Origin: Escherichia coli
GTDB taxonomy: Bacteria; Pseudomonadota; Gammaproteobacteria; Enterobacterales; Enterobacteriaceae
DNA: 1,207 nucleotides
NCBI RefSeq assembly: GCF_003334385.1
Contig: NZ_QOWN01000121.1
Strand: one strand, 5' to 3'
In this document: positions 1-1,207 of the stretch, piece by piece
How positions within the stretch are numbered: position 1 is the first letter of the stretch
Layout of the letters: each line of letters begins with the position of its first letter
Translations under genes and position numbers: made by a program
The notes under the pieces: model-generated
Database searches by the model: none
What the model was told of the DNA's origin: nothing
Seen by the model: only the letters and a program-made list of their open reading frames with translations

Positions 1-313
1 CGCTCAAGCAACAGCGCATTCTGGCGCATGATCCGGTAAACACGTTTGGCATTGATCGCAGGCATACCATCAAGTTCTGCCTGTCTGCGAAGCAGCGCCC
101 ATACCCGACGATAACCATACGTGGGCAGCTCTCCGATAACATGGTGTATACGGAGAAGCACATCCGTATCATCAGTGTGACGACTGCGGCGGCCATCCAT
201 CCAGTCATCGGTTCGTCTGAGAATGACGTGCAACTGCGCACGCGACACCCGGAGACAACGGCTGACTAAGCTTACTCCCCATCCCCGGGCAATAAGGGCG
301 CGTGCGCTATCCA
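1..313 (-). CDS. insD: IS2 OrfB (InsD), DDE transposase catalytic part, N-terminal ~104 codons only; 3' end truncated by the window edge
   Basis: Manual translation of the reverse complement of 1-313 from the GTG at 313-311 gives (V/M)[103 protein letters not shown], recognised as the InsD N-terminus. It is in the -1 frame relative to orfA and overlaps its 3' end. It is absent from the ORF track because it has no ATG and no stop inside the window. Confidence 0.85.
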
Positions 314-637
314 CTTTTTTGCCCGTCCATATTCAACGGCTTCTTTGAGGAGTTCATTTTCCATCGTTTTCTTGCCGAGCAGGCGCTGGAGTTCTTTAAT
401 CTGCTTCATGGCGGCAGCAAGTTCAGAGGCAGGAACAACCTGTTCTCCGGCGGCGACAGCAGTAAGACTTCCTTCCTGGTATTGCTTACACCAGAGAAAT
501 AACTGGCTGGCTGCTACACCATGTTGCCGGGCAACGAGGGAGACCGTCATCCCCGGTTCAAAGCTCTGCTGAACAATTGCGATCTTTTCCTGTGTGGTAC
601 GCCGTCTGCGTTTCTCCGGCCCTAAGACATCAATCAT
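272..637 (-). CDS. insC: IS2 OrfA (InsC), the small helix-turn-helix DNA-binding / regulatory transposase subunit, 121 aa
   Basis: The supplied ORF 272..682(-) contains [49 protein letters not shown]...[15 protein letters not shown], recognised as IS2 InsC. I place the start at the ATG at 637-635 (residue 16 of the track ORF), which has the GGAG ribosome-binding site upstream. The track's longer N-terminus begins at a GTG inside the IRL and is unlikely to be real. Stop is TAA at 274-272. Confidence 0.9.
314..320 (-). other. Programmed -1 ribosomal frameshift slippery heptamer A AAA AAG, joining orfA to orfB to make the OrfAB transposase
   Basis: The minus strand reads GGGCAAAAAAGTGGATAGCGCAC. 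In the orfA frame this is GCA AAA AAG TGG. After a -1 slip the reading continues AAA AAA GTG GAT AGC..., giving [15 protein letters not shown]..., which matches the InsD N-terminus. A6G frameshift sites are the established mechanism in IS3-family elements. Confidence 0.7.
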
Positions 638-642
638 CTGTT

Positions 643-646
643 CTCC
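643..646 (-). promoter_or_regulatory. Shine-Dalgarno (GGAG) for IS2 orfA
   Basis: The minus strand reads CATTGGAGAACAGATG: GGAG followed by a 5-nt spacer and the orfA ATG at 637-635. Confidence 0.5.
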
Positions 647-676
647 AATGACTAGTCTAAAAACTAGTATTAAGAC

Positions 677-696
677 TATCACTTATTTAAGTGATA
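677..696. repeat. 9-2-9 palindrome TATCACTTA-tt-TAAGTGATA straddling the inner edge of the IS2 IRL
   Basis: Seen directly: 677-685 TATCACTTA, 686-687 TT, 688-696 TAAGTGATA, a perfect reverse complement. It lies between the terminus and the orfA start, where the IS2 promoter/operator is reported. Its function is inferred, not shown. Confidence 0.6.
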
Positions 697-728
697 CTGG
701 TTGTCTGGAGATTCAGGGGGCCAGTCTA
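688..728 (-). repeat. IS2 left terminal inverted repeat (IRL, ~41 bp); element terminus at position 728
   Basis: The minus-strand sequence starting at 728 is TAGACTGGCCCCCTGAATCTCCAGACAACCA..., the characteristic IS2 terminus. The exact inner boundary is taken from the published ~41-bp IRL length, not measured here because the right end is absent. Confidence 0.75.
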
Positions 729-913
729 GTCAGTGATCTACAGCCTGTTGAATAAAACCCCGGATGCTTCCCCCGATTCTGCAAGTAATACTTCGGTTAT
801 TTGCACTATTTTATCCCTGTTGAATTTGGTTAAGCCGGTGCAGACGCGCCGGGAAACGCACACCTGAACCGGCACAATAAAATACAATACAACCCCCTGT
901 TACTGGAGAAATG

Positions 914-945
914 TAAGCGTCAACGGAGCACCGTATTGACGCTTA
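914..945. repeat. Perfect palindrome / hairpin (10-bp arms TAAGCGTCAA / TTGACGCTTA, 12-nt loop) at the IS66-like terminus, overlapping the transposase stop codon
   Basis: Seen directly: 914-923 TAAGCGTCAA and 936-945 TTGACGCTTA are exact reverse complements. The loop CGGAGCACCGTA can form an extra 3-bp stem (CGG/CCG). On the plus strand it is followed by TTTATT (946-951), so it resembles an intrinsic terminator in that orientation. Confidence 0.6.
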
Positions 946-1128
946 TTTATTGGTGAGTACTACGTTCCATGGCAGGAGTTCGTCAACTCGGTTGGAAGGC
1001 CATTCCGGCAGTACGCTCAGGATATGGCGCAGATACGCTTCCGGATCGATACCGTTCAGACGGCAGGTGCCGATCAGCCCGTACAACAGTGCTCCACGCT
1101 CGCCGCCGTGATCGCTGCCAAAGAACAT
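943..1128 (-). pseudogene. IS66-family transposase (TnpC-like), C-terminal 61-codon fragment
   Basis: ORF 943..1128(-) translates to MFFGSDHGGERGALLYGLIGTCRLNGIDPEAYLRHILSVLPEWPSNRVDELLPWNVVLTNK. This matches the conserved IS66 transposase C-terminus pattern (WLFAGSD.GGERAA..YSLIGTCKLNG.DPEAYL...ELLPWN). Full-length proteins are ~500 aa, so about 90% is missing. The frame immediately upstream is closed by stop codons. Confidence 0.6.
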
Positions 1129-1180
1129 AAAGATGGTATGACCTTTATATACTCACTATAGCATTGGTGGGATATTCCAG

Positions 1181-1186
1181 AGGAGG
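1181..1186 (+). promoter_or_regulatory. Strong Shine-Dalgarno AGGAGG, 5 nt upstream of the ATG at 1192
   Basis: Positions 1181-1194 read AGGAGGTCATTATG: a consensus ribosome-binding site with optimal spacing to an ATG. Confidence 0.4.
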
Positions 1187-1191
1187 TCATT

Positions 1192-1207
1192 ATGCATTCG
1201 GAAAATA
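1192..1207 (+). CDS. 5' end of an unidentified ORF (M-H-S-E-N...), running off the window 3' edge
   Basis: ATG at 1192-1194 preceded by AGGAGG, then CAT TCG GAA AAT. Only 5 codons are visible, so no product can be assigned. The call rests entirely on the translation-initiation context. Confidence 0.25.

Follow-up and report, generated by a model that had tools for sequence, protein, structure and literature searches.

The question raised by this locus is whether the copy of IS2 found in it is, as the original prediction held, an intact and potentially active element lying next to a gene start. The window, by which we mean the whole 1207-bp stretch of DNA that was analyzed, is a mosaic made from three insertion sequences with a short stretch of host DNA between them. 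Its features are as follows:

1..728, minus strand: IS2 nt 1–728 of 1331 (the left 55%), placed by a gapless alignment with K-12 IS2A; the element continues past the window's left edge
687..728, minus strand: IRL, the left terminal inverted repeat (42 bp), which acts as the recipient end; 41 of its 42 bases are those of K-12
673..690, minus strand: OrfA operator (IS2 nt 39–48, including TAAATAA) and P_IRL, a weak promoter of the extended −10 type that starts with TGAT at nt 48–51, at the positions given in PMC3299598
272..637, minus strand: orfA (insC), the gene for the OrfA repressor and for the N-terminal portion of the transposase; it has 121 codons followed by a stop, from translation
488–490, minus strand: codon 50 of orfA, TGT (Cys) in place of CGT (Arg), from translation
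314..320, minus strand: the A6G slippery heptamer A AAA AAG (IS2 nt 409–415), from the sequence
1..314, minus strand: codons 1–104 of the orfB frame, which correspond to OrfAB residues 109–212 (the middle interval, without catalytic residues), from translation
729..912, no strand: 184 bp of intergenic DNA of the E. coli chromosome, from the rbsK–DeoR ... alcohol dehydrogenase–acuR region, identified from the empty site in strain R8
913..1132, minus strand: the right end of ISEc23 (IS66 family), cut off at 1132, from the RefSeq annotation of a 100%-identical stretch
1133..1207, plus strand: the left end of ISEc45 (IS110 family), within the ISEc23 transposase gene, from comparison of interrupted with uninterrupted ISEc23
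1192, plus strand: the ATG of the ISEc45 transposase, from the annotation of loci that are 96–99.7% identical

The Left Half of IS2

An alignment with the IS2 reference and a count of the substitutions had been proposed together with the original prediction. The reference used was IS2A of E. coli K-12 MG1655 (NC_000913.3, 381260–382590), which belongs to the IS2 group of the IS3 family. Over nt 1–728, the two are identical at 725 of 728 positions (99.6%), with no gaps and three substitutions, and judged from the sequence of the visible 55%, the element is IS2; a chance match need not be considered. OrfA scores 238.9 bits against the NCBIfam model NF006928, “IS2 repressor TnpA”, which is above the curated cut-off of 229, and the orfB part aligns with profile positions 1–104 of the 301 in NF006918, “IS2 transposase TnpB”, at 228 bits, to be read against a cut-off of 597 that applies to the whole protein.

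There is no indel or stop in the visible 728 bp, and the anatomical part of the original prediction stands. The orfA frame is uninterrupted through its 121 codons and stop at 272–637. The A6G heptamer, A AAA AAG on the minus strand at 314–320, is intact in the overlap between orfA and orfB, and orfB, in the −1 frame, stays open for 104 codons without a stop, from 314 down to the window edge at position 1. IRL is complete (687–728), out to the terminal TA. In the map of Lewis et al. (2012; PMC3299598), the operator occupies nt 39–48 and P_IRL begins at nt 48, and both have the K-12 sequence. A generic sigma-70 promoter scan of the window gave no site; this carries no information, as P_IRL belongs to the weak extended −10 type and lacks a −35 element. 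An Rfam search of the window gave no family at E ≤ 1. The open reading frame listed over orfA has 136 codons, as it starts from an upstream in-frame GTG; orfA itself has 121.

The first of the three substitutions, A>G at IS2 nt 32 (window position 697), lies inside IRL. The second, C>T at nt 239 (window position 490), changes codon 50 from CGT to TGT and results in the replacement R50C in both OrfA and OrfAB. The third, A>C at nt 606 (window position 123), is synonymous. At the protein level, R50C is the sole amino-acid difference of the window-identical allele from K-12. IS2 as such is found in about 88% of complete E. coli genomes, and full-length copies at other sites (L008, L009 and pS88) match the window at 100% over all 728 bp.

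Element C, a non-conserved part of the protein-binding domain, ends with nt 32, where IRL has A and IRR has T according to our own IRL–IRR alignment; the names of the IRL and IRR elements, including element C, are those of PMC3299598. In a 41-mer census of complete E. coli genomes, the 6,419 places with G32 were spread over 2,351 genomes, none of which had more than 30 copies; A32 occupied 13,861 places, with 40 copies as the highest number in one genome. Copies with G32 show proper 5-bp target duplications at many sites. With these duplications and as many as 30 copies in one genome, G32 is benign and compatible with transposition, and the idea that it impairs the function of the end is ruled out.

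A Nest of Insertion Sequences

According to the original prediction, the element lay next to a gene start. What IRL in fact adjoins is 184 bp of intergenic DNA, followed by the 3′ end of a transposase gene of ISEc23, broken by ISEc45. The terminal repeat of ISEc23, GTAAGCGTCAACGG... (GTAAGCG...), begins at 913 and is matched 20/25 by the opposite end of the element in strain MEI4BO-21 (L001). The last 61 codons of the ISEc23 transposase are found at 943–1128 on the minus strand, and this 61-aa tail matches profile positions 348–385 of the 387 in NCBIfam NF033517 (DDE_Tnp_IS66). The gene is broken at 1132/1133 by an element of which 75 bp and five codons are in the window. It is identified as ISEc45 by 96–99.7% DNA identity to loci annotated as such, and by the recurrence of the same junction in loci with a 377-aa DEDD_Tnp_IS110 gene.

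The sole gene start in the window is the ISEc45 ATG at 1192, which is 464 bp from IRL and points away from it. The suggestion that the element might exert polarity on a host gene, or activate one, finds nothing in the window to support it. Transcription of IS2 is directed inward from IRL, away from the flank, so that any read-through would exit at IRR, beyond the window's left edge. IS2 sits in a nest of insertion sequences, made up of IS2 and then an ISEc23 split by ISEc45, and not beside the start of a host gene.

Residue 50 and the Transposition Pathway

IS2 moves by a copy-out/paste-in mechanism (PMC3299598, PMC3219604). P_IRL drives weak transcription of orfA and orfB, and most ribosomes yield OrfA, which is a repressor of P_IRL. 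OrfAB is the product of a rare −1 frameshift at A AAA AAG, which fuses OrfA residues 1–108 to the orfB frame. Through its H+HTH region, OrfAB binds to the protein-binding domain of each end, and it dimerizes by means of a zipper-like motif. It then cuts IRR at its 3′ end and links this end to a point 1 bp outside IRL, giving a figure-of-eight and subsequently a minicircle, in which the abutted ends form a strong promoter, Pjunc. Both ends of the minicircle attack the target, and integration is accompanied by a 5-bp duplication (all from PMC3299598 and PMC3219604).

Residue 50 belongs to the recognition helix (helix 3) of the HTH (residues 30–51), a motif common to the OrfA repressor and the OrfAB transposase. 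The helix 3/HTH region in the window retains the invariant tryptophan, W49, and S57, but has cysteine at residue 50 and not the wild-type arginine. In a random-mutant study by Lewis et al. (2011), R50H led to mostly dissociated protein–DNA complexes and a transposition frequency of 0.00 (PMC3219604). This was the only substitution at R50 that was tested, and the authors describe R50 as “pivotal” for recognition of the cognate DNA (PMC3219604). A search of the literature gave no paper that mentions IS2 R50C.

Arginine is found at residue 50 in 116 of 120 close relatives of OrfA (81–100% identity). A wider set of 122 homologues, in which identity falls to about 50%, has R at this position in 111 cases, K in 7, H in 2 and C in 2, so that R or K is kept in 118 (97%) while the remainder of the helix varies. 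The invariant tryptophan beside it is kept in 121 of the 122. The conservation of Arg50 across elements with different ends argues for a general contact with DNA. The statement in the original prediction that nothing in the visible 728 bp indicates a decayed copy is therefore not sustained, since R50C hits a residue whose R50H mutant is transposition-null.

Located in the HTH that OrfA and OrfAB have in common, R50C would most likely weaken binding to the IS2 ends. Weakened binding would make the copy at best a weak autonomous transposer, and poor end binding would be expected to affect self-repression by OrfA as well as self-transposition. The reading that we favor, by a modest degree, is that the R50C proteins bind the IS2 ends poorly, with both self-repression and self-transposition weakened, and that the intact IRL could serve as recipient end for the transposase of another copy. 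Because IRL is intact, a co-resident R50 transposase could mobilize the copy in trans, provided that IRR is present.

Distribution of the R50C Allele

The census of the two alleles was made with a 41-mer centered on the SNP, with megablast seeding on the matching allele only, in 5,426 complete E. coli genomes. It gave the following counts:

T239 (R50C): 439 places in 383 genomes; median 1 and maximum 3 per genome; plasmids/chromosomes 366/73
C239 (R50): 12,245 places in 3,519 genomes; median 2 and maximum 29 per genome; plasmids/chromosomes 1,225/11,020

R50C thus makes up about 3.5% of IS2 copies and is mostly plasmid-borne, being carried mostly beside iss on ColV-type plasmids such as pECOS88. 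A larger index of proteins has the exact R50C OrfA in 5,282 blocks, compared with 80,750 for R50. Such rarity and lack of expansion within genomes are what one would expect of a poorly active or inactive allele; the low number of R50C copies per genome is, at the same time, confounded by lineage because most of these copies ride on ColV-type plasmids.

R50C copies with perfect 5-bp duplications are found at at least six sites (ACGAT, GCAGC, TCAAC, ATATG, GCCAC and ATCAT), and the allele is present on at least five haplotypes. Two of the copies, L008 and L009, are identical across all 1331 bp and are located at two different sites. It follows that the allele either moved itself or was copied into elements that did, and its spread to several sites would also fit a functional transposase. 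These haplotypes are visibly mosaic, as in pS88, which has a K-12-like leader and an L004-like right half, and both gene conversion between copies and trans-mobilization by an R50 transposase are realistic routes for R50C. The occurrence of identical proteins on diverged haplotypes was also considered as a sign of purifying selection on R50C and was rejected, as the L004 and pS88 types differ at four non-coding positions only.

It is nearly as likely as not, though we hold this more tentatively than the poor binding itself, that R50C is a circulating, binding-impaired and non-autonomous allele of IS2 that hitch-hikes mainly on ColV-type virulence plasmids and at a few fixed chromosomal sites, and that it reaches new sites only through trans-mobilization by R50 or gene conversion.

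An Autonomous Element?

The alternative closest to the original prediction is that the copy is a complete, autonomous and transposition-competent IS2 that tolerates R50C and has an intact orfB, including the DDE residues, and an IRR in its remaining 603 bp. There is no structural lesion in the 728 bp, and the R50C copies flanked by proper 5-bp duplications at several sites also speak for such an element. Furthermore, in all of the full-length copies with the exact 728-bp allele that were examined (L008, L009, pS88/L038 and L041), the 409-aa fusion frame is present and IRR is complete. Most of the sampled copies with a clean left 728 bp are likewise full length, about 24 of 26 being complete in what is a biased sample. 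Against this stand the null phenotype of R50H and the retention of R or K in 97% of homologues, as well as the maximum of three R50C copies in a genome, compared with 29 for R50. In addition, the relatives at the same site are truncated or recombinant. We consider full autonomy unlikely.

The two parts of IS2 that carry out the first chemical step of transposition, the catalytic core and the donor end, are outside the visible sequence. The window encodes OrfAB residues 1–212. In the domain map of OrfAB, these include the H+HTH (13–60), the leucine-zipper-like motif (70–103) and the middle interval (104–206), and the catalytic site occupies residues 236–398, with D240, D306 and E342 (PMC3219604). 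IRR is the sole donor end, while IRL is “the exclusive recipient end” and “lacks donor function” (PMC3299598); IRR of IS2 is 41 bp long and reads ...GGGGCAAATCCA. Because the DDE core and the IRR donor end both lie off the window, activity is not something that the window can be read for.

Nor can the right half be inferred from the left, because two full-length haplotypes share the exact 728 bp. These are the L008/L009 type and the pS88/L041 type, which are 17 nt and 5 amino acids apart in their right halves, with C245R, R251K, D295E, S298A and V332M in the pS88 type and a K-12-like sequence in the L008 type. There are also IS2 copies in which a clean first 728 bp is followed by a single-base indel or frameshift, at nt 840 in L006 and at nt 1088 in L002.

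The Same Insertion in Other Genomes

The insertion point reads ...CAGACGCA/GTCAG..., with the slash marking the junction, and the flank on the IRL side, on the IS2 strand, is CTGAC. In strain R8 (L026), the site is empty, reading ...CAGACGCA/GTCAG/TGATC..., in a region that consists of rbsK, a DeoR regulator, an ilv pseudogene ... an alcohol dehydrogenase and acuR. The same intergenic sequence is found in NCTC86, without ISEc23. The IS2 of NCTC86 was considered as a candidate for the same insertion and rejected: it is 132 bp away, full length and only 98.9% identical, and represents an independent event, so that the region is a repeated target for IS2. Other IS2 copies are flanked by 5-bp duplications.

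The same junction between IRL and flank is present in 22 complete E. coli genomes, with 100% identity over window positions 690–1132. MEI4BO-21, GE3, NCTC11121 and the 19 others have the identical 404-bp flank, including the ISEc23 end, but unlike the window, none of them has ISEc45 in ISEc23. In 21 of the 22, IS2 is a 262-bp remnant annotated as “transposase, incomplete”, and a second, full-length R50C copy of IS2 is found 6–10 kb away in the same orientation, beside a PTS operon. The remnants have C239 (R50) and G251, whereas the window copy has T239 and C251. MEI4BO-21 is the only one of the 22 in which IS2 is full length. Its flanks are unequal, CTGAC on the left and ACGAT on the right, the latter followed by a hypothetical-protein gene and the PTS operon; it is therefore the recombination product of the two local IS2 copies, with loss of the intervening DNA. 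The IS2 of MEI4BO-21, which is without a target duplication, differs from the window at four positions (nt 57–70).

The window copy reaches at least 466 bp beyond the common truncation point and is therefore not the truncated form. From its sequence, its haplotype (K-12-like at nt 57–70, T239 and C251) is consistent both with an ancestral copy of full length and with a recombinant whose crossover lay between nt 71 and 238.

These relatives give rise to the other alternative, namely that there is a structural defect or rearrangement beyond the left edge. The copy could be truncated, have a frameshift in orfB or lack IRR, or it could be a recombinant with the IS2 located 6–10 kb away, without a target duplication. 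That IS2 ends at nt 262 in 21 of the 22 genomes with the same junction, and that the sole full-length case, MEI4BO-21, is a recombinant with unequal flanks, both point in this direction. So do the indels behind a clean left half in L006 and L002, and the window haplotype is the one expected from a crossover at nt 71–238 between the two local copies. However, the window copy continues 466 bp past the point at which the others are truncated, the clean-left copies are mostly complete in the (biased) sample described above, and a recombinant would remain a complete IS2 with both ends. We regard such a defect as improbable, somewhat more so than full autonomy. It can coexist with the favored reading of a binding-impaired R50C element, with which it is compatible.

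The whole composite (IS2, 184 bp, ISEc23 end and ISEc45) is absent from the 5,426 complete E. coli genomes, in which the best match is that of window positions 1–1132 to MEI4BO-21. It is also absent from PLSDB, the GTDB species representatives, the JGI metagenomes and IMG/VR; the search pattern was checked against the window itself. Exact-protein searches with the R50C OrfA and with the 61-aa IS66 tail gave other contexts only.

Significance and Comparison with Known Elements

The element is already known, its surroundings are an ordinary nest of insertion sequences, and the R50C allele is modestly interesting. One more copy of IS2 changes nothing, because IS2 is a textbook element present in most complete E. 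coli genomes. There is, however, a more general point: a copy without stops or frameshifts is not necessarily wild type, as is shown here by one missense change at a residue for which a null phenotype has been published, and an insertion sequence cannot be called active from a half that is without the catalytic core and the donor end. The allele census, in which R50C is rare, plasmid-borne and never expanded, is of modest use for modeling the dynamics of insertion sequences and for annotating them as active or inert. If R50C is indeed binding-impaired, it would be a natural example of an attenuated insertion-sequence allele that is maintained in populations.

Compared with K-12 IS2A, the window copy has the same IRL, operator and P_IRL, orfA, A6G site and orfB start, and differs by the three substitutions described above. 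Two other known copies are 100% identical to the window over 728 bp, including R50C: the IS2 beside iss on the ColV-type plasmid pECOS88 (NC_011747.1; transposase WP_088130945.1) and the chromosomal IS2 located between dacD and sbcB (L008). Their insertion sites differ from that in the window, and their right halves differ from each other.

Among the better-known elements of the IS3 family, IS911 and IS3 share with IS2 two overlapping frames joined by a −1 frameshift, an HTH with an invariant tryptophan (W49 in IS2) and a DDE transposase. They also share copy-out/paste-in transposition through figure-of-eight and minicircle intermediates. Unlike in IS911 and IS3, only IRR donates in IS2 and IRL only receives, and OrfA represses P_IRL.

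IS2 at the Insertion Site in Related Genomes

Of the 22 complete E. coli genomes with an IS2 at the insertion site of the window, 21 retain no more of the element than nt 1-262. The copies relevant to the site and its surroundings are the following:

Loci L024, L025 and L042: IS2 remnant adjoining ISEc23
MEI4BO-21 (L001), 3398-4728: full-length IS2, flanks unequal (CTGAC vs. ACGAT)
NCTC86 (L037), 1999-3329: full-length IS2

The MEI4BO-21 copy arose when recombination with another IS2, 6-10 kb away, deleted DeoR-rbsK-fucP-epimerase. In NCTC86, an independent insertion, which carries the R50 allele and is 98.9% identical over its first 728 bp, lies in the same intergenic region, 132 bp from the insertion point at window position 729, suggesting that the region is a local hot spot for IS2.

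IS2 haplotypes are mosaic (pECOS88, L038; L041, 17959-19289; L008; L004), which indicates that IS2 copies have exchanged sequence by recombination or gene conversion. Two different right halves follow the same left 728 bp, and nt 57-70 are the sole difference between the L004-type and pS88-type elements. The ColV-plasmid copy adjoining iss has no target duplication (flanks CACCT vs. CAATT).

One copy (L012, 3910-5240) combines R50C with R291L. The catalytic-domain mutation R291H was null in Lewis et al. 2011 (PMC3219604). R291L is a second change, alongside R50C, at an experimentally critical residue. The element is still flanked by a 5-bp duplication, GCCAC.

IS66-Family Elements and Their Surroundings

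IS66-family elements repeatedly enter the left end of IS2: ISEc8 splits an R50-allele copy at about nt 101-109 on the AR_0089 plasmid (L040, 17464-21244), and ISEc43 splits the chromosomal site-A copy near nt 65 (L011, L042).

In the 184-bp host spacer between IS2 and the ISEc23 end, two hairpins with T-runs resemble terminators. Both lie on the strand that carries the genes of ISEc23 and IS2:

Window 893-909, minus strand: terminator-like hairpin
Window 760-776, minus strand: terminator-like hairpin

Their number falls within the range of shuffled sequences (two found, 0.9 ± 0.9 expected).

The IS66-family transposase genes themselves (ISEc23, ISEc43) hold ISEc45 at one identical position across many unrelated contexts:

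Window 1116-1207: ISEc45 within an IS66-family transposase gene
L014-L022, about 4700-6190: the same arrangement
L002, 5016-6652: the same arrangement

The 61-aa IS66 tail ORF created by this insertion has index entries in 7,061 blocks. ISEc45 inserts at CCAAAGAACATAAAG^TTTTTC, and its right end (GACAAAGGTCATAAGAG) resembles the left side of this target. The pattern looks like sequence-specific targeting of one IS by another, and sequence-specific targeting is expected of IS110-type recombinases.
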